From Candidatus Woesearchaeota archaeon (GTDB lineage Archaea > Nanobdellota > Nanobdellia > Parvarchaeales > Parvarchaeaceae), in the NCBI GenBank assembly GCA_964641875.1, contig CAZXLU010000002.1, forward strand, positions 1 to 53,708: a stretch of 53,708 nt of DNA, written 5' to 3'. Below are positions 36,900 to 53,708 of this stretch, piece after piece; positions within the stretch are counted from its first letter, which is position 1; every line of letters begins with the position of its first letter. The notes beneath the pieces are model-generated. The model made no database searches, had not been told where the DNA came from, and saw only the letters and a program-made list of their open reading frames with translations. Made by a program: the position numbers and the translations under genes.

Positions 36900-37379
36900 C
36901 TATATAATTTTATAGTAATTTTTGAAATTGCTTTCGAATAAGCTTATACTGCTTGCAATAAATGAGAATTCCTTTTCTTCTGCCATTTTATTAAATTGTT
37001 TTTTTATTTTTTTTACTCTACATAAAGTAACATGTGGTTTAAAATCTTCATCGAATTTAATCCTTAAAAAATCAGCTATGTCTTTTGCAATGGTTTTTAA
37101 ATTATTATGAATTTCACCATATACGATACGTGGTTTAATAATATTTGGGAACCCATTAATTCCGCTTATTCTTATATCATCTAAGAATTTAATATCTCTT
37201 ATAAACTCTTTAAATTCCTCACTTATCTTAAAATTTCCTAAAAAAAGGAGGGTTATATGCAATTTCTCCTCTTCTGTAAATTTTCCATCAAAATATTCTT
37301 CTAATAAGGGATAGTAGTATGAAATGATATCTTTTTTTATTTGTGAAGGGATATCAATAGCAACAAAATATCTTTTCAT
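36900..37379 (-). CDS. 2H phosphoesterase (LigT/ThpR, 2'-5' RNA ligase family)
   Basis: Two HxTx motifs, LHITLLF and PHVTLCR. The start MKRYFVAIDIP at 37379 forms an ATGA overlap with the upstream stop. Confidence 0.8.
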   Translation of the reverse strand: MKRYFVAIDIPSQIKKDIISYYYPLLEEYFDGKFTEEEKLHITLLFLGNFKISEEFKEFIRDIKFLDDIRISGINGFPNIIKPRIVYGEIHNNLKTIAKDIADFLRIKFDEDFKPHVTLCRVKKIKKQFNKMAEEKEFSFIASSISLFESNFKNYYKII

Positions 37380-38296
37380 TTTACAGTTTCTATTGAATCT
37401 ATCTGTCCATCTCCGTCTATATCGTATCCACGGACCATCATACTCCAAGGCGCTTCGTTAGAGTATCCCTTAAATGTAAGATTTGAAAATCTGGTTGCAG
37501 CAAGAATCGCTGACAGCGTCCCTATGTTTCTTACTCCAGCAATTAGTATTATATCCTTTTCCTTGTCAAAGGGATTTTTTATCTTCTCTATGGTTCCTTC
37601 GTAATCCCTGATGTGTATGCCATTTCTGTCTTTAAGGGCCCAGCCTTCCTCCTTTATAAATTTTATCGGGAGAAAATTATTTATGTCTCTTGTAACTAGA
37701 TTTGTCACTGGCCCTCCTATAACTATTAAATTGTTTTTGAACATATTCTTTGATATAACATCAGTATCTAAAACAATTGGAAGTGAACTCGGCAAATCAA
37801 TAAATTGTCCAAGAAACATACCTAGATATGCTGTATAATGCGAGTCCTTTGCGACAGACTTGTATTCTCCGTGAGGGTCTGAAGCTCCAACACATATATA
37901 ACCATTAAATTTTCCATTGTTTATGAATTTAGAGAAGAAATTTAAGGCGTACTGGTTTTCTTTGTTTCTGCTTCTTGGGTCAAACTTTACGTTATTTTGA
38001 TTTATTTCATATGAAAATGAATTGTAAACTGCTTTAACCAACTGGGTATCTTTTTGTTGGGTAATCTCTACTAAACCGGCTTTTTCCATCTTGGATAGAT
38101 ATAAATTTAAGGCCTTTTTATCGATTTTAAGTTCCTTTGAAAGCGCGTCTGCTTTATACTGTTTTTTAGATATCTTCTTTAGTATTGTGATTGCTTTCTC
38201 ATCAGCAATGTTTTTTACATCCTTTATATCCTCTAATAGCTTTGTATCATTCACAAAATAATTCTCTCCGTCGTTCTTAAGAATATAATTTTTCAT
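37376..38296 (-). CDS. Winged-helix (ArsR/MarR-like) N-terminal domain fused to a domain resembling the C-terminus of the surface protein at 3..407
   Basis: wHTH-like ALSKELKIDKKALNLYLSKMEKAGLVEI. Later LIVIGGPVTNLV...DIILIAGVRNIGTLSAILAAT parallels VIVMGGPAVNTL...ALWVAGYNASGTVEASEVLAAS. No signal peptide or TM. Confidence 0.6.
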   Translation of the reverse strand: MKNYILKNDGENYFVNDTKLLEDIKDVKNIADEKAITILKKISKKQYKADALSKELKIDKKALNLYLSKMEKAGLVEITQQKDTQLVKAVYNSFSYEINQNNVKFDPRSRNKENQYALNFFSKFINNGKFNGYICVGASDPHGEYKSVAKDSHYTAYLGMFLGQFIDLPSSLPIVLDTDVISKNMFKNNLIVIGGPVTNLVTRDINNFLPIKFIKEEGWALKDRNGIHIRDYEGTIEKIKNPFDKEKDIILIAGVRNIGTLSAILAATRFSNLTFKGYSNEAPWSMMVRGYDIDGDGQIDSIETVK

Positions 38297-42549: not shown

Positions 42550-43104
42550 ATGGAAAATCAGGTAAAAAATGATTTTATAGACAGGTTTACCGATAATAGT
42601 ATCGGTATGCTTTTTATAAAGGAGAGATATAAACTTGATGATGTAGCGCTGCAATTATTTAACAGAATAAAAAACAAAAAATTTAAATTGGTATACGTAA
42701 CCGCAAGCTTGCCATCGAAAGTTATACAGGAGAAAATAGAAAGCATAAAGCTGGACGATTATTTTATAATAGACTCTGTTAGCAGCAGCATATCAAGTGA
42801 TTTGTCGCCTACGGAAAAAAGTATATTCCTAAAATCTCCTGCAGATCTTACTGAGATAGGTATTAGTCTAGAAGGGATACTTAGAAAGTATCAAAATACT
42901 CTATTTATAGTTATAGATTCGCTAACTTCTTTGCTGATATATAACTCTGAAAATGAGATACTTAGGTTTGTGCATTTTACGTCTTCACTTGCAAGAGAGA
43001 AAAAAAGCAAGCTAGTTTTTATAGTTCTAGAAAATAACGGTGTAAGTAAAGGATTTCTTGATAAGATAAGAAGCTTTATAGATGAAGAAGCATTTATAGA
43101 ATGA
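42550..43104 (+). CDS. RecA/KaiC-superfamily-like protein lacking a Walker A loop
   Basis: LFIVIDSLTSLLIY (Walker B-like hhhhDSlt.l) and KLVFIVLEN strands. The expected GxxGxGKT position reads IKERYKLDD. Confidence 0.45.
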   Translation: MENQVKNDFIDRFTDNSIGMLFIKERYKLDDVALQLFNRIKNKKFKLVYVTASLPSKVIQEKIESIKLDDYFIIDSVSSSISSDLSPTEKSIFLKSPADLTEIGISLEGILRKYQNTLFIVIDSLTSLLIYNSENEILRFVHFTSSLAREKKSKLVFIVLENNGVSKGFLDKIRSFIDEEAFIE

Positions 43105-45298: not shown

Positions 45299-45362
45299 AG
45301 TGAAATTTTTAACAAAACTATAAAATATACTAGTTTTTAGTGCTAATTTTAAAATGAAAATA

Positions 45363-45370
45363 TTTATATA
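45363..45370 (+). promoter_or_regulatory. TATA-box candidate for the 45392 gene
   Basis: TTTATATA ends 21 nt before the ATG. Confidence 0.4.
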
Positions 45371-45391
45371 TTATAATGTAGTAAAGATTTT

Positions 45392-46588
45392 ATGGTTGTA
45401 GAAAGAGAGAGAATCCCTGCAGTTGTAATACTACTGCTTATGTTGATTGGTTCTGTAGTCATATATCTTTTATTAGTCCCGCCACCTGTAGCTTATAAAC
45501 TTCTTGGTATAAACAATACCAGCACTTCCGTTCCGACCATACCAAAAGGAGAGTTCTACAAAAGCCTAAACATTTATATAGGTGGTAATAGCAAGCCAAT
45601 CAACACTAGTTATTCAATAGGCACTTTTGGAGTAGATTTCCCGATATCAAATTCGACAATTTTCAATAAAAGTGATATTTCAATAGGCTCAAGCATATTT
45701 GGCTCGTCATCATACAATTTAGATTTTAATTCATCACAGAATTCTACCTACTTTTTAATTGTGAAAGTCGAATCCGTTTCAGGAAGTCCAAAGATGACAT
45801 TCTCACTGAATGGTAAAAGTTTCTTCTCAACATTACCAGCAAAAAATGAGACAATAACCGAGAAAATTCCAGTTAATTCAAATTCTAAAAACTTGCTATC
45901 TATAACCGACAGTTTAAACGGTTTTGCATTTACACAATCATTTAAACTATCAAACGTACAGGTTGTAGAAGAAAAGGGGAAGAACAATGCTTATTCTATT
46001 CCAATAAAAATATTAACTTTCAGTGGAGTAGGGGATTATTCTCTAGATTACACCCCTATAGGATATGGCTTATTGAATGTCTACATAAATAATCAAATTG
46101 TATCAAGCATAAACAGCGGAAATGATACACAGCAAGAAGTAAATATCCCTCCTAATGTTATATCAAGGGCAATAAGGAATTCAAATGCCTCTTCTGTTGT
46201 TTTTCCAGTAGAATTTAATGTGGCTTTTCAACCTGCGGAAAACGTCTCTTATGAAATTGCAAATGCCGCGCTTAATTACGAGATACCTTTTATAGCGGAA
46301 AATTCTCCATCAATATACTATTCTGTGAACGCTACAAAAAGCAATTACATACTTACTTTTGATGTTTCCAGTATAATAGATAAGGGCAATGTCTACTTTT
46401 ATTTCACTCCCAGCGGCAGTAATGTTACAATGGCTGCAAGTCAATTATCAAGTGGAGAAAATGTTCTTTTAATCCCTTCTACTTATCTTGGCAATCCTTC
46501 AAATGGAAATTATAGTGGCACTATAAAAATATCTTCAAATGGTTTAGTTATACCATCGTTCATCTCATTAAAATCTCTTTCCAGTTGA
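45392..46588 (+). CDS. N-terminally anchored, sequon-rich extracellular protein (first gene of the surface locus)
   Basis: ERERIPAVVILLLMLIGSVVIYLLLV anchor, loosely like the haloarchaeal pilin-N pattern. Many N-x-S/T sequons. Confidence 0.6.
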   Translation: MVVERERIPAVVILLLMLIGSVVIYLLLVPPPVAYKLLGINNTSTSVPTIPKGEFYKSLNIYIGGNSKPINTSYSIGTFGVDFPISNSTIFNKSDISIGSSIFGSSSYNLDFNSSQNSTYFLIVKVESVSGSPKMTFSLNGKSFFSTLPAKNETITEKIPVNSNSKNLLSITDSLNGFAFTQSFKLSNVQVVEEKGKNNAYSIPIKILTFSGVGDYSLDYTPIGYGLLNVYINNQIVSSINSGNDTQQEVNIPPNVISRAIRNSNASSVVFPVEFNVAFQPAENVSYEIANAALNYEIPFIAENSPSIYYSVNATKSNYILTFDVSSIIDKGNVYFYFTPSGSNVTMAASQLSSGENVLLIPSTYLGNPSNGNYSGTIKISSNGLVIPSFISLKSLSS

Positions 46589-46590
46589 AA

Positions 46591-46598
46591 TTTAAATA
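46591..46598 (+). promoter_or_regulatory. TATA-box candidate for the zinc-finger gene
   Basis: TTTAAATA ends 21 nt before the ATG at 46620. Confidence 0.4.
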
Positions 46599-46619
46599 TG
46601 AAGAAGTAGTATCCTTATT

Positions 46620-48068
46620 ATGTTGATAAAGCTTAATAAGAAGGGGCAGGCAGCCGGCGGGGCATCACAACCACCCAATAATCCGCCTCCAAAAGATAAT
46701 AATCCAACGCTCAAAGGTAAGAGGAAATTTACATGTGAGGTATGTGGTCAGAGATTTCCTACAAAGGGATCGTTATGGGCCCATTTACAAAACGTTCATG
46801 GTTATTCTCCACAGCTATTAGAATTAGAAGAAGAAAAGAAAAAAAATAGAAAATTGCTAAACACAGATAGTATTATAAGATCTGCGAAAAAACATTCTAT
46901 TTTGCTTGCACCATTTATTATTATAATAATCCTTGTAGTTGTTTACTTCGCATTTTATGCATCCACTAATGTCGGGATAGTTTACACTGAAGTAACATAC
47001 GGAAGTATCTTTTCAAAGGTAAGCGGGCTTATTTCTTCCGGGTTTTCAGCTATCTCAACCTTTATAGCCGAGATACAGAATCCAAATCTACTGATATCAC
47101 AACCACATGTTACTAGTACAAATTCCACACCAACATTTTCTTCCTTTTTAACATTTAATTACCCACCAGATCAAGAGGTTGTTTTAACTAGCAATCCGCA
47201 GCAAGGGTCAATATTCTATTCTGTTACGAATAATGCTAATGTTCCATTGGGCCCAGGTACTTCTAATAATCTGCTTGTGAATATCTCCTGTGGGAGTACA
47301 GTATCTACTGGGGCAGCGCAGTATTGCAAAGATATGTTAACTAAGTTTATAAATCCCGTAGAAACAAGTAGCTCTCCACCTTCCGTTAACGATCAATCTT
47401 TAATAAATATCCTAGCTCCAGGAGAAACAAAAGAGAATACAACTTATTTCGATCTATCATGTCCTAGCAAAAAATTGACTTTTCCATTATCAATGTCATT
47501 GCTTGCAACTTTCTTAATAAAAAATTATACTGCTGCAGTTATTCTGCCAGTAGAATTCATGTCCAATTCCTTTCAAAATCAATTGCTATCCTCAGATCAG
47601 GCATTTGTTCCTTCAGAGCCTTCGTTTAATTTTTATTCCTCTGGTCCAGTTCAGATGGAAGTTTATACTGATGCAAGACAACCTATACTGACAAAAATAA
47701 ATTCGCTTCCATTGCAGGTAACAATAAAAAACAATGGAAACTATCCTTACGATATCAATAATTTGTCATTGTATATAAGCAAAGCGTTTTATCCTACAAA
47801 CCCATCAACAAGTTATTGGAAATGCTCTACTGCAACGCCTTTTATTAGACAAGGTTTTCATTTCCCTGGAAATAGTTATTGGAATTGTTACATAGATAAT
47901 AGTAATATACTTTCTTCAGGGAAAAGTTTTTATCTTGGTTTGCCAGCAGTAAATTCATTAAATGGTATGCACTTCAATACAATGACAATAATTGGTTATG
48001 TTAATTATAATTATAACGAAAGCTTAAACATGCCAGTAGTTGTAAGCAATCAAACATGTAAGAGTTGA
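46620..48068 (+). CDS. Membrane protein: prepilin-like leader (NKKGQ), Pro-rich spacer, classical C2H2 zinc finger, TM helix, ectodomain paralogous to the downstream pilin-like proteins
   Basis: FTCEVCGQRFPTKGSLWAHLQNVH (C-x2-C-x12-H-x4-H, nt 46728-46799). TM ILLAPFIIIIILVVVYFAFYA. The ectodomain has LQVTIKNNGNYPYDINNLSLYI and a C-terminal VNYNYN motif. Confidence 0.65.
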   Translation: MLIKLNKKGQAAGGASQPPNNPPPKDNNPTLKGKRKFTCEVCGQRFPTKGSLWAHLQNVHGYSPQLLELEEEKKKNRKLLNTDSIIRSAKKHSILLAPFIIIIILVVVYFAFYASTNVGIVYTEVTYGSIFSKVSGLISSGFSAISTFIAEIQNPNLLISQPHVTSTNSTPTFSSFLTFNYPPDQEVVLTSNPQQGSIFYSVTNNANVPLGPGTSNNLLVNISCGSTVSTGAAQYCKDMLTKFINPVETSSSPPSVNDQSLINILAPGETKENTTYFDLSCPSKKLTFPLSMSLLATFLIKNYTAAVILPVEFMSNSFQNQLLSSDQAFVPSEPSFNFYSSGPVQMEVYTDARQPILTKINSLPLQVTIKNNGNYPYDINNLSLYISKAFYPTNPSTSYWKCSTATPFIRQGFHFPGNSYWNCYIDNSNILSSGKSFYLGLPAVNSLNGMHFNTMTIIGYVNYNYNESLNMPVVVSNQTCKS

Positions 48069-48069
48069 T

Positions 48070-49059
48070 ATGATAAATAAAAAAGGAGCAAGTGGTGTAG
48101 TTGGCGGCGTTTTCGTACTTATAATAATTGTAATATTGTTCCTATATGGACCAATAATACTCAATAAAATAGGTTTCTCCCCAGTTCCATCAGCTAGTTC
48201 TTTGAATAAAACAGTAGCAGTTGGGGTTGTTTCAATAAATTCTCCTTCCAAAGTTTCTCCATCATCTAAATTTGGAGTCACTTTTCTTGTTGCAAATAAT
48301 CTCAATGGAGCGGCAGCTTCAAACATATTTTTCTGCTTGGATAATCTTGGCTTATTCTCAATAGTCTCAAGCCCGCAAGAATCCAATCCAAGTCCAAATG
48401 GAAACGCTATAACAAGTGGTAGGTGTGTCAGTATACCATCACTTGCAACTGGTAGCATACTTTCAGAGGGTTTTACATTGTCAGCACCGCCAGCTAGTTA
48501 TTACGGTAACATACAATATTCACAAAATTTAGGTTATTACTTAAATTTCTCTTATGTTGGAAAGGCAATGCAACAGTTAGAATTCGTCTCACAAAGTGCA
48601 AGCAATAGCGGAAATTATCCTTCACCAACAACCCAAACTTCAGGAGTAACGGCAGGCCCTATAGAGATATCTTCTTCATCTTCACAGCCGGTAGTGTATG
48701 GACAGGACATAGAACTTACTATAAATCTTAATAATATAGGGTTGGGCACTCCTATAGGTAAGGCAAATCTTTCAATATATATAAATAGTTCAATACTTAC
48801 AATTACCGGAGCGAATGCCTTAGGATTAAAAACTAGACAATTTAGCAATGGAACTGAAGTCTTGTATGATCAAGTATCTATAGGCCCTAACGGCGCTTCT
48901 ATAACGCTGCCGGTTGCCTTATCCTCTTCGGAATCAACTAAGTTATCAAATTCAAACGTTCCAGTTTTTACTGATGATATGAATTTTAATGTTCATTATT
49001 CATATGAGCAAGAAGGATATATACCAATAAGTTTGTATATATCTCCATATTCAATCTAA
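48070..49059 (+). CDS. Class III (prepilin-type) signal peptide protein, ~300-aa pilin-like/adhesin subunit
   Basis: MINKKG/ASGVVGGVFVLIIIVILFLYG. The start lies 1 nt after the upstream stop. Ectodomain motif ELTINLNNIGLGTPIGKANLSIYI. Confidence 0.65.
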   Translation: MINKKGASGVVGGVFVLIIIVILFLYGPIILNKIGFSPVPSASSLNKTVAVGVVSINSPSKVSPSSKFGVTFLVANNLNGAAASNIFFCLDNLGLFSIVSSPQESNPSPNGNAITSGRCVSIPSLATGSILSEGFTLSAPPASYYGNIQYSQNLGYYLNFSYVGKAMQQLEFVSQSASNSGNYPSPTTQTSGVTAGPIEISSSSSQPVVYGQDIELTINLNNIGLGTPIGKANLSIYINSSILTITGANALGLKTRQFSNGTEVLYDQVSIGPNGASITLPVALSSSESTKLSNSNVPVFTDDMNFNVHYSYEQEGYIPISLYISPYSI

Positions 49060-49102: not shown

Positions 49103-50029
49103 ATGTATAATAAGGGTGCAAGCGGTGCAGCTATTGTCGGCGTTTTAATTATCGTTATAATATTGATAGTTGTTATATATGGAATTAACAGCGGAAAATT
49201 GAATTTTGGTAAAACCAAGTCTTCAACTCCAAATTCTTTCTATATATCTGCAAGTTTAAATGCCACATCAATTTATTCCGGACATTCTGCACCATTATAT
49301 CTCACTTTTTTTAATCCTTTTAACCAGCCGGTTAACCTCCAATTACAGGCAGAGATCGGTTCACCTAATTATGTTGCGATTTCACCAAGTTCAAAAACAA
49401 TAAGCATGCCTGCTTCTATGTCTACACCAACTTCTGTTCTATTTAATGTTTCCTGCCTTGGTTCCAGTTCTAGCGTTTCTTCAACTTACCTTTTTTCATC
49501 GAAAGTTACAGACTTTTGGCAAAATTTTACAACATCTGTGATAACTTATCCATATGGCATAGCTTCATCATTGATACCACAAACGATTTATAATAATACT
49601 AATCAGGGATTCATGTCAGTTACTGCAAACCCAATTTCTATAGAAACTCAGATACCTTCTGGCTCTTTATCACAAAATATGAATCTAGCTATATCACCAA
49701 CCTATGATAGTGGCGAACCATATACGGAAATCTCTTCCGGAACCCCAAATAAGGTTTTGAGCAATATAATAATTACAATAAAAAATTCGTCAGGAATAGC
49801 GTCGGCATCCGCATATTACAATGGTCAAACTTATCCATTTTCTGTTTCAGGTAAAACTCTAAAGCTTTCCCTTTCAAACGTAAATTTGGCATTGATAAAG
49901 CCTTATTTGACATTTGATATAAGAGCAACTAATCTAAATTCTACTTCGCAGAATATAGTAAACATAGATATAAATTACAATTATTACTTCTCATTCCCAG
50001 GTTCTCCAGCTCAAATATCTTGTGATTAA
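49103..50029 (+). CDS. Class III signal peptide protein, pilin-like paralog
   Basis: MYNKG/ASGAAIVGVLIIVIILIVVIYG. Motifs LYLTFFNPFNQPVNLQL and C-terminal INYNYY. Confidence 0.65.
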   Translation: MYNKGASGAAIVGVLIIVIILIVVIYGINSGKLNFGKTKSSTPNSFYISASLNATSIYSGHSAPLYLTFFNPFNQPVNLQLQAEIGSPNYVAISPSSKTISMPASMSTPTSVLFNVSCLGSSSSVSSTYLFSSKVTDFWQNFTTSVITYPYGIASSLIPQTIYNNTNQGFMSVTANPISIETQIPSGSLSQNMNLAISPTYDSGEPYTEISSGTPNKVLSNIIITIKNSSGIASASAYYNGQTYPFSVSGKTLKLSLSNVNLALIKPYLTFDIRATNLNSTSQNIVNIDINYNYYFSFPGSPAQISCD

Positions 50030-50915
50030 TATGGATAAAAAAGGACAAAGTGGGGTTATAATAATTGTTATAGTAATAATAGTAATTGGTATTCTCTTCT
50101 TATACCATGAAGGTTATTTTAGTGCAAAAACATCAATAACCACTACTAAGCAGAATGTAAATCCTTACCTTCCAATTTCTTTTAATATTTCTTCTACAAA
50201 TAACCTAGCTCATCTTTATACAAATCAAAATATAAACATAATTTCCAGTTTAGTTAATTCCGGAAACGAGCCTATAAACTTAATTCTTTCTCCTTACGGC
50301 TGCTCTTTCCTTCCAATACAAAATAAAAGCGTTTCAATACCAGCCGGTTCTTCAACGTCTTTACAATGGACTTTTTCCGGATCCAATCCGACTACTTGCA
50401 GTATAACGCTTCTTGCTTGTTTTAATGCAGTTTCTTATACAAATTACCCTTTGACTATAGAGAGCTATAAATTTACTGGAAAAGCCCCAAGTTCCGCTTC
50501 AACGGCATCTTCTGGTTTACCAATAGATTTATTCTTACAGTCATTTAACTCAACAATAGTAGCTGGGCCTTCTCCAGTTAATAATACAGAATACATTTAT
50601 GGATACGCATTAACATCTACAGGTTCTACTTCAAGGCTCAATTGGGTTTCAATCTCGATAAATAATGGAAAAGGTTACTTTACAACATCTACTGGGAAAA
50701 CCCTAGAAATAAATCCAAATATAAACATAACAAATTCACAGTATCCATTAACATTTGAACATGGCAAACTTCTAGCTCCCGTATCATTTTCATTGCTAGT
50801 TCAGCCAGTTTCAAATTCTTTAGGTTATTACACTGGAGCAGCAATAAACGTAAGCGCTGGTTATACTTATTGTTTAACTTCAAACAGCATACCTATAACA
50901 TTACATAGCTCTTGA
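50022..50915 (+). CDS. Class III signal peptide protein, pilin-like paralog
   Basis: MINMDKKG/QSGVIIIVIVIIVIGILFLY. Motif SSLVNSGNEPINLIL. The start may be ATG 50031, just after the upstream stop. Confidence 0.65.
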   Translation: MINMDKKGQSGVIIIVIVIIVIGILFLYHEGYFSAKTSITTTKQNVNPYLPISFNISSTNNLAHLYTNQNINIISSLVNSGNEPINLILSPYGCSFLPIQNKSVSIPAGSSTSLQWTFSGSNPTTCSITLLACFNAVSYTNYPLTIESYKFTGKAPSSASTASSGLPIDLFLQSFNSTIVAGPSPVNNTEYIYGYALTSTGSTSRLNWVSISINNGKGYFTTSTGKTLEINPNINITNSQYPLTFEHGKLLAPVSFSLLVQPVSNSLGYYTGAAINVSAGYTYCLTSNSIPITLHSS

Positions 50916-51656
50916 ATTATCTAATAAAAGATTTATCGCTTCTTCTTCATTTTTGCTTAATTCCCCGGGTATTAATATCACCAAAGGCGGTTTTAATTTT
51001 TCTATTTCTTTACCTATAGCTTTTTCTATCTTTTGAGAAGCACCGCCAAGCCTGGAAACCACAAGGACATTTTCCCAATTAATTATTTTTTTATTTCTCT
51101 TTTGCTCTATGTTTTTTATTATCATGACAGCATCTTTAGCATTTAAAAAAGTATTTTCATCTCTTACTTCTAAAAGTATTAAAGAATGGTAATTCAATGA
51201 AAGGTTTTTTTCTATAACATCGAAAAAGCTTTCTGGTTTAAAATTTTCTGTGTATATGGGTATACTGGTTGTACCACCGAATTTGTACAAAGATAATCCT
51301 GTTTCACCAAGTGCAGAAAATATGCTTGAAGCGTGTACAATTTCAAATTTTATATTTTTTTCTATGCAATCTTGTATGATAGAAAAATGTGTTGTTGCTG
51401 CCAACGGGTCTCCAGGGACTAAAATAACAATATCTTTATCTTTTGCTTTTTCAACGATGAAACTGCTTTCCAGAGTTTCTCTTTTTATTATACTTATTTT
51501 TTTATTAGTTGTTTTTTCAAGCTCATCCAGAAAACTTATGTCATTTAAATTCGTATATCTTTCAAGGAATGCTTCGTCACAATTTTTTATAAGATCTATC
51601 GCTCTAAATGGCAAATCATTTAAATAATATAATCCAGTACCTATTAAGTGTAGCAT
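50901..51656 (-). CDS. dph5: Diphthine synthase (Dph5)
   Basis: MLHLIGTGLYYLNDLPFRAIDLIKNCDEAFLERYT and VPGDPLAATTH, a tetrapyrrole-methylase fold typical of Dph5. Confidence 0.9.
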   Translation of the reverse strand: MLHLIGTGLYYLNDLPFRAIDLIKNCDEAFLERYTNLNDISFLDELEKTTNKKISIIKRETLESSFIVEKAKDKDIVILVPGDPLAATTHFSIIQDCIEKNIKFEIVHASSIFSALGETGLSLYKFGGTTSIPIYTENFKPESFFDVIEKNLSLNYHSLILLEVRDENTFLNAKDAVMIIKNIEQKRNKKIINWENVLVVSRLGGASQKIEKAIGKEIEKLKPPLVILIPGELSKNEEEAINLLLDNSRAM

Positions 51657-52494
51657 GGTATATCAAATGGATTATGTAATATTTATCTTTGTGCTTGCCA
51701 TACTTACAGCAGCATCTATAAGCGACTTTAAAAGTAGAGAGGTTCCGGATTCAATAAGTTATATCCTTATAATAGGTAGTTTTTTACTTGTTTTGGCTTA
51801 TTCAATAGAGTATAAGACAATATCAAATTTATTATATATGCCGCTATCTATACTGTTAATAGCTGGTTTTTCTTATATTATGTATAGGATAGGCCAATGG
51901 GGAGGCGGCGACGTAAAGCTTTTATTTGGTTTAAGCTTGGTTTTTACTTCTTTAAACCTGTTTTCAAATACTTCTTTTGTAGCATTGTTAATAAACATAC
52001 TTCTTTTCGGTGGTGTTTATGGTTTATTAGGCACTATAATATTAGGACTTGTAAAGATTAAGAAACTTAAAAAATATTTTAAAGCATATGATATCCCTTT
52101 TTTTGCAGTAATGGCAATCATTATAGTAATATCAATTTTCCTTATCCCATTACCACTTAATGTTTTTATTTCCATTGCAGCTTTCATGCTTTTTTCATTG
52201 CGTTTTTTATTCCTTGTTGCAAACAATTTAATGTATGTTAATGAAAAAGTAGAAAAGCTTACAGAAGGAGACTGGATCGCTGAAATTCCTAAAGATAAAA
52301 ATGGAAAGAATATAATAGCAGATAGAAGTACGGGGTTGACTCTATCAGACATACAGAAACTCAAAGAAAGCGGAGTTAAAGAAGTTTTAGTAAAAATAGG
52401 TCTGCCATTTGTTCCTGGAATATTGTTTGCAGTTATTATAACGATTGTTTTTGGAAATCCTCTGCTTCAAATCCTCTCTTCTTTGTATCTTTAG
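51655..52494 (+). CDS. A24-family prepilin/preflagellin peptidase (PibD/FlaK/EppA-like) with an archaeal C-terminal domain
   Basis: First Asp motif SISDFKSREVPD and second Asp motif WGGGDVKLL. A soluble insert EKLTEGDWIAE...VKEVLVKIGLPFVPG precedes the last TM. Confidence 0.85.
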   Translation: MVYQMDYVIFIFVLAILTAASISDFKSREVPDSISYILIIGSFLLVLAYSIEYKTISNLLYMPLSILLIAGFSYIMYRIGQWGGGDVKLLFGLSLVFTSLNLFSNTSFVALLINILLFGGVYGLLGTIILGLVKIKKLKKYFKAYDIPFFAVMAIIIVISIFLIPLPLNVFISIAAFMLFSLRFLFLVANNLMYVNEKVEKLTEGDWIAEIPKDKNGKNIIADRSTGLTLSDIQKLKESGVKEVLVKIGLPFVPGILFAVIITIVFGNPLLQILSSLYL

Positions 52495-52791: not shown

Positions 52792-53708
52792 ATGAAGGTA
52801 TTTAATAGAAAAGGTCAGCAAGTAGTAGAAGCTTTAATGACTTACGGATGGATGATTCTTATCGTGGCGGTTGTTATAGCTTTGATTTTTGCTCTTGGTA
52901 TCGTTCCATTAAATTTTGTTCCGCCATCTGCAACTATAAGTGGGTTTTCAGGTGTTAAAGTTACTGCTGTTGTTGCAAATTACACATATCTCGAATTTTA
53001 TGTTTCAAATGATCTTTCTATCCCTGTTAATTTAAATAAATTTTTGTTAAGTTATAATAGTACGTATTTCTCAAATATTAAGTGTCAATATCTTACGCTC
53101 TCTCCAGGCCAAAATTCTATATGTTTCTTGAAGATAAACCTAGCGAATACGAGAGATACCGTAAGTTTAGGTATGGGTTTCGCAATAAATAGCAATTTAA
53201 ATGCTTCTTCAAACGGTACAATGTCATTTGTTCCAGTGAAAATTTCCTTGTATTTACCACCAACTATTACAGTATTCAATGAAGAGGGTTTAACAACTGG
53301 AGTTCAATGGTGGGTAGATTATGATGGAAAGAATGTTTCTTCTACCGGTAAATCCATTTCAATATCTACAGTGTTTGGAGATTATTCATTTATAGTTGGA
53401 AATGTAACTTTCAATGGTTGCAAATTTACAGCATTGCCTTCTTCAGGAACGCTTGAATCAGGTTTATCTCAAAACATAATATTCATAAATTCCTGTGCAG
53501 CGACATTTATTGAAAAAGAATTACCAAAGGGAACAAGTTGGCAAGTTACATATGCAGGCAAACAGCAGTCTACCACAAATAATATCTTAGTATTTACAAA
53601 TGAGAAATCTGGTACTCATTCATTTTCAGTTGCTAATTCTGTAGTGGCTGGGTGTACATATTCACCTTCCCCTTCTTCAGGAACATTATCCGTTGGTAGT
53701 TACAAGTA
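52792..53708 (+). CDS. Class III signal peptide adhesin-like protein with ~78-aa tandem repeats; 3' end beyond the window (not in the ORF track)
   Basis: My own translation of frame 1 gives MKVFNRKG/QQVVEALMTYGWMILIVAVVIALIFALG with Glu at +5, no stop to the window end, and two repeats starting near 53269 and 53503. Confidence 0.7.
   Translation, partial: MKVFNRKGQQVVEALMTYGWMILIVAVVIALIFALGIVPLNFVPPSATISGFSGVKVTAVVANYTYLEFYVSNDLSIPVNLNKFLLSYNSTYFSNIKCQYLTLSPGQNSICFLKINLANTRDTVSLGMGFAINSNLNASSNGTMSFVPVKISLYLPPTITVFNEEGLTTGVQWWVDYDGKNVSSTGKSISISTVFGDYSFIVGNVTFNGCKFTALPSSGTLESGLSQNIIFINSCAATFIEKELPKGTSWQVTYAGKQQSTTNNILVFTNEKSGTHSFSVANSVVAGCTYSPSPSSGTLSVGSYK

Follow-up and report, generated by a model that had tools for sequence, protein, structure and literature searches.

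A classical C2H2 zinc finger on the predicted cytoplasmic tail of a conserved membrane protein in a Parvarchaeota prepilin locus

The window analyzed here is a 53.7-kb stretch (32.7% GC) of contig CAZXLU010000002.1 (assembly GCA_964641875.1). In a prepilin cluster with an A24 peptidase, its gene B encodes a real and conserved fusion of a classical C2H2 zinc finger, one transmembrane (TM) helix and a large extracytoplasmic domain, as an initial annotation of this DNA had proposed. Homologues of B and related contigs bear the name Candidatus Parvarchaeota (ARMAN-like DPANN archaea). B is a fixed component of a Parvarchaeales-specific surface-structure locus, and we regard its architecture and evolutionary history as well supported, with very little doubt attached. 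Its function we only infer, ranking a membrane-tethered nucleic-acid-binding tail slightly above a tail that docks on proteins as an assembly adaptor.

Results

A classical C2H2 finger in the tail of B

The open reading frame (ORF) of B begins with MLIKLNKKGQAAGG. At residues 37–60 the translation reads F-T-C-EV-C-GQR-F-PTKGS-L-WA-H-LQNV-H, which follows the classical C2H2 spacing rule, [FY]-x-C-x2-5-C-x3-[FY]-x5-hydrophobic-x2-H-x3-5-H. The pattern C-x2-4-C-x12-H-x3-5-H has one match across the six frames of the window, and shuffled sequences give 0.15 per window. The Pfam zf-C2H2 model (PF00096) scores 23.0 bits (E=1e-4), under its gathering cut-off of 25.2 bits; such sub-threshold scores are common for single fingers. 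With a 50-residue query spanning the finger, phmmer reaches E=5e-13 to ZBTB24 in the PDB, and the best single-finger alignment to that protein (query LKGKRKFTCEVCGQRFPTKGSLWAHLQNVHGYSP) scores 23.7 bits. An exhaustive phmmer search with residues 1–92 against 1.84 billion representatives returns 13,673 proteins at E ≤1e-3, presumably eukaryotic; the top 150 are all poly-finger proteins aligned to query residues ~30–65. That the search is swamped by poly-C2H2 proteins confirms that the finger is classical and does not inform on its origin. One orthologue is already labelled "C2H2-type zinc finger protein" by NCBI's pipeline, and the precomputed matches of a two-finger orthologue (P0002) to C2H2 families are faint only.

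AlphaFold2 (AF2) predicts strands at residues 37–38 and 45–46 and a helix at 49–60, the beta-beta-alpha arrangement, with a predicted local distance difference test score (pLDDT) of ~83 in a model of the isolated tail and ~76–78 in the full-length model. All of the top 50 Foldseek matches of the tail model in the PDB are classical C2H2 fingers, including those of Tramtrack, SALL4, ZBTB24, CTCF, Kaiso and Ikaros. Single-finger matches (19–35 columns) have root-mean-square deviations of 0.2–2.4 Å. Probabilities in the set go up to 0.96, and E-values are non-significant because the domain is tiny. The finger is classical in sequence and in predicted fold. The earlier description of a textbook C2H2 finger is borne out by its spacing, by the PDB search, by the models and by its conservation in 19 loci (below).

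A basic patch, KGKRK, flanks the finger on its N-terminal side (Table 1). Its K34 is nearly invariant in the orthologue alignment, and the patch aligns with the TGEKP-type inter-finger linker of eukaryotic fingers (LKGKRKFTCEVCG against ZBTB24). The preceding Pro/Asn-rich linker has a mean column identity of 0.47, the lowest in the protein, and pLDDT values below 50. Past the finger, the AF2 model has charged helices at residues 64–77 and from 82 onward, and a pre-TM motif that is family-wide and kept in finger-less relatives too. Spacer and patch are present where the initial annotation saw them, and the TM helix, which it placed about 30 residues past the finger, starts 33 residues on.

Ectodomain and topology

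The TM segment has a 19-residue Kyte-Doolittle maximum of 3.16. After the tail, the full-length AF2 model (pLDDT 71.5) consists of this helix, a low-confidence stalk at residues 114–166 and two confident beta-sandwiches. The stalk combines a mean column identity of 0.90 with a pLDDT of 27–47, and a segment so highly conserved yet predicted disordered fits an interaction surface. The ectodomains carry six Cys, five of them invariant across the family, and seven N-glycosylation sequons. Foldseek finds only generic immunoglobulin (Ig)-like and beta-sandwich matches for the ectodomain (integrin calf and thigh domains, CfaB and RbmA; query-length-normalised TM-scores ≤0.16), and Pfam and NCBIfam scans assign it to no known family.

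The tail of B holds 18 K/R against 7 D/E (isoelectric point, pI, ~10); the C-terminal 364 residues are acidic, with 15 K/R only. This polarity is shared by the orthologues: tail pI is 9.1–10.7 in 29 of 30, finger-less ones included, and ectodomain pI is 4.1–7.5 and at most 6.0 in 29 of 30. All seven N-x-S/T sequons lie on the C-terminal side of the TM helix, none in the tail, and the conserved Cys are likewise confined to that side. The positive-inside charge and the C-side sequons and Cys, together with the single TM helix, strongly indicate as a prediction that B is type-II oriented (N-in/C-out), with the finger in the cytoplasm and the ectodomain outside. The topology first drawn for B agrees with this.

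Conservation and order of domain gain

A search of 5.8 billion proteins finds 24 homologues of B (17 full-length, at 61–77% identity), and a scan of GTDB species representatives finds 25 loci, including the original ARMAN-4 and ARMAN-5 scaffolds. There are 29 orthologous loci in total. The finger core, [FYV]-x-C-x2-C-x3-F-x5-L-x2-H, is kept in 19 of them, and both Cys and the first His are invariant across these 19. The fourth ligand takes several forms: His at x4 in the window, His at x2 followed by D-E (HQMHDE), or D/E only (HQINDE, HQINDD). Ten deeper orthologues (31–37% identity) have the same pre-TM motif, TM helix, stalk, ectodomain and operon; their tails are finger-less, mostly basic and partly coiled-coil.

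In a neighbour-joining tree of the 29 orthologues, built on the TM helix and ectodomain, the finger clade is monophyletic and its basal member, L024, has the finger without the N-terminal KGQ tag. The tag is found in all crown members save the ARMAN-5 lineage, itself nested in the crown, which has a second C2H2 finger in place of the tag and Pro-rich linker. The fingers of this variant are joined by a 12-residue non-canonical linker (L016 5854-7188; L001 8001-9503), and the ORF of the 2010 ARMAN-5 scaffold GG745546 (L016) ends early, at 444 aa, a truncation that probably stems from a sequencing error close to the 3' end. The ancestral tail, as the tree places it, was 50–140 aa long and basic, with neither finger nor KGQ tag. 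These sequences place the long basic tail first in the order of accretion, the finger second and the tag last. The tree, with the N-termini of L024 and the crown, thus gives an order opposite to that of a finger set into B behind a prepilin leader and ahead of the TM helix, which is how the initial annotation had described it. The core of B (basic tail, KK[HYF][SAG] pre-TM motif, TM helix, stalk and two beta-sandwiches) is older than the finger; in the Parvarchaeum lineage its tail gained first the finger with the basic flank and afterwards the tag.

The locus and its promoters

Essentially all loci whose sequence extends far enough share one gene order: GlmS, PolB, M24 peptidase, FEN1, DUF357, A, B, C, D, E, dph5 (minus strand) and A24 peptidase. 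Typical products are ~400 (A), ~330 (C), ~310 (D) and ~295 aa (E). Gene A has a weak PGF-pre-PGF match. C, D and E carry a canonical class III signal in every locus, [KR]-G/[AQS]-S-G (the slash marks the cleavage position here and below) followed by an H-domain, and on these signals are genuine prepilins. The A24 peptidase has intact catalytic motifs and a weak FlaK_Arch match, and is syntenic in almost all loci whose sequence reaches that far. Just downstream of it lies a giant prepilin-like gene, whose product exceeds 1100–1380 aa in relatives (L001 14148-17503; L007 14118-17467) and has no Pfam family beyond a weak DUF2341 match; it probably serves the same system as an adhesin or tip protein. 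Neither the 20 further ORFs of the window (Pfam) nor the flanks of related loci contain an assembly ATPase, TadC/FlaJ or platform gene.

Table 1. Features of gene B and of its locus in the window
Feature	Position	Strand	Description
Gene A	45392..46588	+	398-aa surface protein; N-terminal membrane anchor; always directly upstream of B; own conserved promoter
B recognition element (BRE)/TATA-like element of B, GTTGAAATTTAAATAT	46584..46599	+	Overlaps gene A stop codon
Gene B	46620..48068	+	482-aa bitopic membrane protein; predicted cytoplasmic C2H2-finger tail, one TM helix, two-domain ectodomain
N-terminal tag, aa 1-11	46620..46652	+	M-x-L-K-[IL]-N-[KR]-K-G-Q-A
Pro/Asn-rich low-complexity linker, aa 12-31	46653..46712	+	Variable in length and sequence
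Basic patch KGKRK, aa 32-36	46713..46727	+	Directly N-terminal to finger
Classical C2H2 zinc finger, aa 37-60, FTCEVCGQRFPTKGSLWAHLQNVH	46728..46799	+	F-x-C-x2-C-x3-F-x5-L-x2-H-x4-H
Two charged helices and pre-TM motif, aa 61-93	46800..46898	+	L-F-[DN]-x-D-x-x-[VI]-R-x-x-K-K-[HYF]-[SAG]
Single TM helix, aa 94-116, ILLAPFIIIIILVVVYFAFYAST	46899..46967	+	Sole strongly hydrophobic segment
Juxtamembrane extracellular stalk, aa 117-176	46968..47147	+	Most conserved segment; predicted disordered
Two tandem beta-sandwich (Ig-like) ectodomains, aa 177-330 and 331-482	47148..48065	+	AF2 pLDDT 80-93
Gene C	48070..49059	+	Prepilin-like; MINKKG/ASG then H-domain; start 1 nt past B stop
Gene D	49103..50029	+	Prepilin-like; MYNKG/ASG then H-domain; own conserved TATA element; homologous to E
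Gene E	50031..50915	+	Prepilin-like; MDKKG/QSG then H-domain; likely start ATG 50031, 1 nt past D stop
dph5, diphthine synthase (TP_methylase)	50901-51656	-	Between pilin cluster and A24 peptidase
A24 (GxGD) prepilin/preflagellin peptidase	51655..52494	+	D24, G83-G-G-D86; Pfam Peptidase_A24 E=6.5e-13
Giant prepilin-like gene, 5' part, MKVFNRKG/QQVVEALMTYGWMILIV	52792..53708	+	Runs off window end

The TATA box proposed for B, and the promoter positions given with it, hold. The element of B occupies the stretch 20–35 nt ahead of the ATG (3' end at 20 nt) and is conserved as GTTGAAATTTA[TA]ATATA at the same distance in 15 species-level loci; this placement points to a leaderless or near-leaderless transcript. 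Genes A and D have equivalent conserved BRE/TATA-like elements 20–35 nt upstream of their ATG. At the B/C and D/E junctions a single nucleotide separates the stop from the next ATG, and this spacing argues that C is co-transcribed with B. Elements and junctions together suggest three leaderless transcription units: A, B-C and D-E.

Several other observations concern the locus. The stretch from TATA to ATG of gene A (45355-45391, TTATAAyGTAGTAAAGATTTT) is near-invariant in 13 species loci, the distant finger-less clade included; this exceeds what a promoter needs and could reflect an operator or a 5'-leader element. The dph5 gene shares 15 nt with E and 2 nt with the peptidase gene, an arrangement kept in the seven loci with gene calls and compatible with ORF spacing in the others. 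The finger-clade loci of the window, L001 and L007 have a gene for a 184-aa DUF835/KaiC-like ATPase (42550-43104, +, in the window) between PolB and the M24 peptidase, and the finger-less L003, L005 and L006 do not; this co-occurrence may simply be phylogenetic. In one finger-less species (L005/L029, JAKASS010000003.1) the insertion sequence elements DDE_Tnp_IS240 and DDE_Tnp_1 lie between C and D, splitting the prepilin cluster and removing no gene. Elsewhere in the window, a 306-aa protein (37376-38296, -) joins an N-terminal winged-helix (TFIIE-alpha/HTH_5/TrmB matches) to a C-terminal 'S-layer like family, outer domain' (PF05124, E=9e-8) and has no TM segment. A 144-aa antisense ORF (48024-48458, -) that covers the 3' end of B and the 5' portion of C lies in AT-rich sequence and is most likely spurious. 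Rfam and ARAGORN give only two unrelated tRNAs as RNA elements in the window.

A candidate nucleic-acid-binding tail, or a docking module

We tentatively favor, as leading candidate only, a B tail that acts as a membrane-tethered nucleic-acid binder, ToxR-like in logic. Like GAGA factor, Ros/MucR and AFV1p06, the tail would bind nucleic acid through a minimal module of basic patch and single finger, here held within a few nanometres of the inner face of the membrane. Outside the cell, the ectodomain and stalk would engage the pilin-like structure or the host surface. B would then be a one-component transmembrane link, ToxR-like in logic and not in ancestry, that ties DNA, possibly RNA, and hence surface-gene expression to the state of a surface structure. 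The tag would serve as a short linear motif read by a partner of prepilin leaders, most simply the A24 peptidase.

This proposal draws on the conservation of the fusion in independent assemblies at a fixed locus order, on a classical finger whose best matches are the DNA-bound fingers of ZBTB24, SALL4, CTCF and Tramtrack, and on the conserved basic patch at its N-terminal flank. Basic tails across the family, the N-in/C-out topology indicated above and a conserved B promoter separate from those of A and D-E speak for it as well. So does the second finger gained by the ARMAN-5 lineage, the usual route to higher nucleic-acid affinity or specificity. The variation of the fourth ligand among H, E and D in B is paralleled by AFV1p06, an archaeal viral protein whose single C2H2 finger has Glu as fourth ligand and binds zinc and DNA (PMC3541406); the fourth ligand is known to be dispensable, and its replacement by Glu or water is documented in AFV1p06 and in some eukaryotic fingers (PMC3541406). 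Finally, membrane-bound regulators and Zn-ribbon membrane proteins are known from archaeal type IV pilus loci (see Discussion).

Several results weigh against nucleic-acid binding. Finger-less orthologues hold the same operon position, from which it follows that the finger is dispensable for the core role of B. The fourth ligand, variable overall, is missing in the ARMAN-4 lineage (HMATQKP). Column identity is 0.62 in the finger versus 0.86–0.90 in the ectodomain and stalk, and so fast-evolving a finger is unlike typical sequence-specific DNA-binding domains. Recognition positions -1, +3 and +6 hold residues that differ among species and of which most are small or neutral (T/S, A/S/Q/E and A/G/Y/Q). 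A search for an operator shared by the A, B and D promoters of 14 finger-clade loci returns only TATA-like k-mers, a weak negative. A ToxR-like function remains plausible, weakened by the fast-evolving tail, the variable fourth ligand and the lack of a shared operator.

An adaptor role comes close behind because the tail evolves fast, its recognition helix is non-canonical and variable, ARMAN-4 has lost a ligand and finger-less orthologues stay in the operon. Possibly, though we lean the other way, B is a structural accessory of the pilin-like filament, analogous to bacterial PilN/PilO/GspL or to FlaF/FlaG of the archaellum. It would grip the filament base or the cell envelope with its stalk and beta-sandwiches, and its tail would dock on a protein partner such as an assembly ATPase, a platform protein, the A24 peptidase or a KaiC-like ATPase. 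The finger would be a protein-binding module and the tag a docking peptide, like that of PilN for PilM. Such a role agrees with the presence of B, with or without its finger, in the same five-gene cluster and with its translational coupling to prepilin C (1 nt from stop to ATG). It agrees also with conservation that peaks in the stalk (0.90) and ectodomain (0.86), the disorder predicted for the stalk being typical of an interface, and with recognition-helix residues that are not typical base readers. The tag, the best-conserved cytoplasmic element, mimics a motif that pilin machinery recognises, and the KaiC-like gene is confined, among the loci examined, to those of the finger clade. However, nucleic acid is the most frequent target of classical C2H2 fingers that have a basic N-flank, no gene for an assembly ATPase or TadC/FlaJ is found in the window or the loci examined, and ARMAN-5 dropped the tag and kept the gene.

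The N-terminal tag and the A24 peptidase

N6, G9 and Q10 of the tag are invariant or nearly so in 15–16 orthologues. Its codons vary synonymously (all four Gly codons, CAG/CAA, AAT/AAC, AGA/AGG/AAA/AAG), which argues that the tag is conserved as protein and not as promoter-proximal DNA; on this codon evidence it is under purifying selection at the protein level. With an identity of 0.78 it is the best-conserved cytoplasmic segment (linker 0.47, finger 0.62). In form the tag equals the n-region plus cleavage motif with which C, D, E and the giant prepilin begin, the leader of the last being the closest match. The KKGQ motif that the initial annotation gave to B and its neighbours alike is indeed seen in E (MDKKGQSG) and, as RKGQ, in the giant prepilin (FNRKGQQ); in C it reads KKGA and in D NKGA.

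A class III signal opens with a short basic n-region ending in [KR]-[GA] at positions -2/-1, and M-L-I-K-L-N-K-K-G/Q, kept in 15 loci, has this form. What follows in B is no H-domain: the next 25 residues are hydrophilic, with a maximal 15-residue Kyte-Doolittle mean of -1.21, versus 2.40–3.98 after the motif in the four true prepilins of the window, and the only hydrophobic segment of B begins 84 residues beyond the tag motif. Lacking an H-domain behind the tag, B fails the class III definition, and the idea of a functional class III signal in B falls with it.

It is unlikely, on balance, that B is a precursor processed by the A24 peptidase encoded 3.6 kb downstream. A cut at G9/Q10 would trim the tag and might leave an N-terminal pyroglutamate, as in Epd-type pilins; alternatively, a cut at KK[HYF][SAG]/hydrophobic would make the 93-aa tail an over-long class III leader and free a soluble finger protein. 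The protein-level conservation of N-x-K-G-Q, the same motif in E and the giant prepilin, and a syntenic peptidase with intact catalytic motifs are consistent with processing. So is the pre-TM residue, which is always small (S/A/G/T) after two basic residues, in finger-less members too; yet the positive-inside rule alone would yield a basic pair and a small residue before a TM helix, and this site has H/Y/F rather than K/R at -2 and seldom G at -1. Known A24 peptidases cut at the cytoplasmic end of an H-domain, which the tag does not have, and both ARMAN-5 and L024 are without the tag.

A24 peptidases are GxGD aspartyl proteases of the same mechanistic class as presenilin and signal peptide peptidase (SPP). 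It is a long shot that B is a proteolytically released membrane-tethered factor comparable to Notch or SREBP, in which the peptidase would read the tag or the KK[HYF][SAG]/TM site during filament assembly or host engagement and free or activate a DNA-acting finger protein.

Gene B and the pilins of its locus

The initial annotation took B for a pilin paralog, with ectodomain motifs common to the three downstream pilin-like proteins. With profiles of 20–30 orthologues per gene, hhalign relates D to E at 99.5% over the full length (positive control), C to E at 91% and C to D at 87% in the N-terminal region; B, with its ectodomain and TM region, reaches at most 14% against C, D or E, and 1.5% against A. 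BLASTP of the B ectodomain against the neighbours gives nothing significant, and the AF2 model of B does not have the alpha1/globular-domain fold of pilins. Paralogy of the ectodomain with A, C, D or E is rejected by these searches, and neither the common motifs nor the pilin kinship is retained. It is highly improbable that B is a pilin paralog whose class III signal was split by the finger and whose sensor was copied from the structural subunits. The N-terminal KKGQ motif and a TM helix with a beta-rich ectodomain, both as in the neighbours, would fit that account; the hhalign values, the predicted fold and the ancestral finger-less, tag-less long tail, to which the tag was added last, do not.

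An artefactual frameshift joining a small zinc-finger gene to a membrane-protein gene, which the initial annotation named as a possible refutation, can be dismissed: nothing was found in its favor, and the same continuous ORF recurs in ~19 independently assembled metagenome-assembled genomes from different sites, ARMAN-4 and ARMAN-5 included. An internal alternative start giving a finger-less, pilin-like form is likewise rejected, as there is no conserved start codon between finger and TM helix, an absence that counts against the frameshift account too.

Discussion

The general kind of protein to which B belongs is already known, as zinc modules and membrane regulators occur in pilus loci; the combination of C2H2 finger, TM helix and ectodomain is undescribed. 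The novelty claimed for a fusion of a finger to a pilin-locus protein stands in this form, the literature searched having no description of a C2H2 finger on such a protein, nor any paper on the prepilin-like tag of B or on the Parvarchaeota A–E locus. The nearest counterpart is arCOG07264, membrane proteins with an N-terminal Zn ribbon in the Sulfolobus bindosome (type IV pilus-like) loci (Makarova, Koonin and Albers 2016, PMC4858521). Both place a cytoplasmic N-terminal zinc module on a membrane protein among archaeal type IV pilin-like genes. Compared by description, arCOG07264 differs in having a Zn ribbon and not a beta-beta-alpha C2H2 finger, in belonging to another phylum and in that no large beta-sandwich ectodomain is mentioned.

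Archaeal type IV pilus loci also list ArnR and the membrane-bound regulator arCOG00381 (PMC4858521). Like the bacterial bitopic regulators of the ToxR/TcpP/CadC type, ArnR/ArnR1 and arCOG00381 combine a cytoplasmic DNA-binding domain with a membrane anchor, to which ToxR adds an extracytoplasmic sensor domain. All of these regulate surface or pilus genes, the archaeal ones acting on type IV pilus and archaellum genes. B matches by prediction the ToxR-like layout of a single TM helix, N-in/C-out topology and an extracytoplasmic domain. The DNA-binding domains of these regulators are, however, winged-helix or helix-turn-helix (HTH), whereas the candidate module of B is C2H2; there is no homology, and DNA binding by B is putative. 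Pfam and NCBIfam match no OmpR-type winged helix/HTH in B, the finger being the sole domain, so B is at most an analogue of ToxR and not a member of its family. Also unlike ToxR-type regulators, B is most conserved in its outside portion and not in its putative DNA-binding part.

AFV1p06 with related archaeal or viral fingers, GAGA factor and Ros/MucR share with B a single classical finger with a basic extension, but are small and soluble, with no membrane tether or ectodomain. PilN/PilO/GspL and FlaF/FlaG are, like B, bitopic and encoded with pilin genes. The conserved N-terminal cytoplasmic peptide of PilN docks on a cytoplasmic partner, PilM, and in FlaF an N-terminal TM helix is combined with an extracellular beta-sandwich. 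None of these has a zinc finger, FlaF/FlaG lack a long cytoplasmic tail, and Pfam and NCBIfam detect no similarity of B to any of them. Zinc-binding anti-sigma factors (ZAS; RslA, ChrR) likewise join a cytoplasmic zinc N-terminus to a single TM helix and an extracytoplasmic domain; their zinc motif is HxxxCxxC, and their partner is a sigma factor, which archaea do not have. Proteolysis frees the regulator in some ZAS proteins and GxGD-protease substrates (Notch, SPP substrates); cleavage of B is purely hypothetical.

Classical C2H2 fingers are, to our knowledge, rare in archaea. A 2013 study reports only one archaeal C2H2 protein as characterised for DNA binding, a small soluble viral protein (PMC3541406). 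Here the finger sits at the inner end of a surface protein in a conserved pilin cluster of ARMAN/Parvarchaeota, ultrasmall symbionts from acid-mine settings. The tag is an oddity of its own, a prepilin cleavage motif without an H-domain held under purifying selection, and is testable against the substrate rules of A24 peptidases.

B could connect a structure on the cell surface with nucleic acid, or with the assembly apparatus, in the cell interior. Should its tail prove to be a docking module, B would supply an inner-membrane component so far missing from an archaeal pilin-like machine. If the tail were released, it would point to regulated proteolytic signalling through a prepilin peptidase and a eukaryote-type finger in a DPANN symbiont. 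With a tail that binds DNA or RNA, B would be without archaeal precedent as a ToxR-style transmembrane regulator that uses a eukaryote-type finger, and would offer a handle on how DPANN archaea couple surface contact to gene expression.

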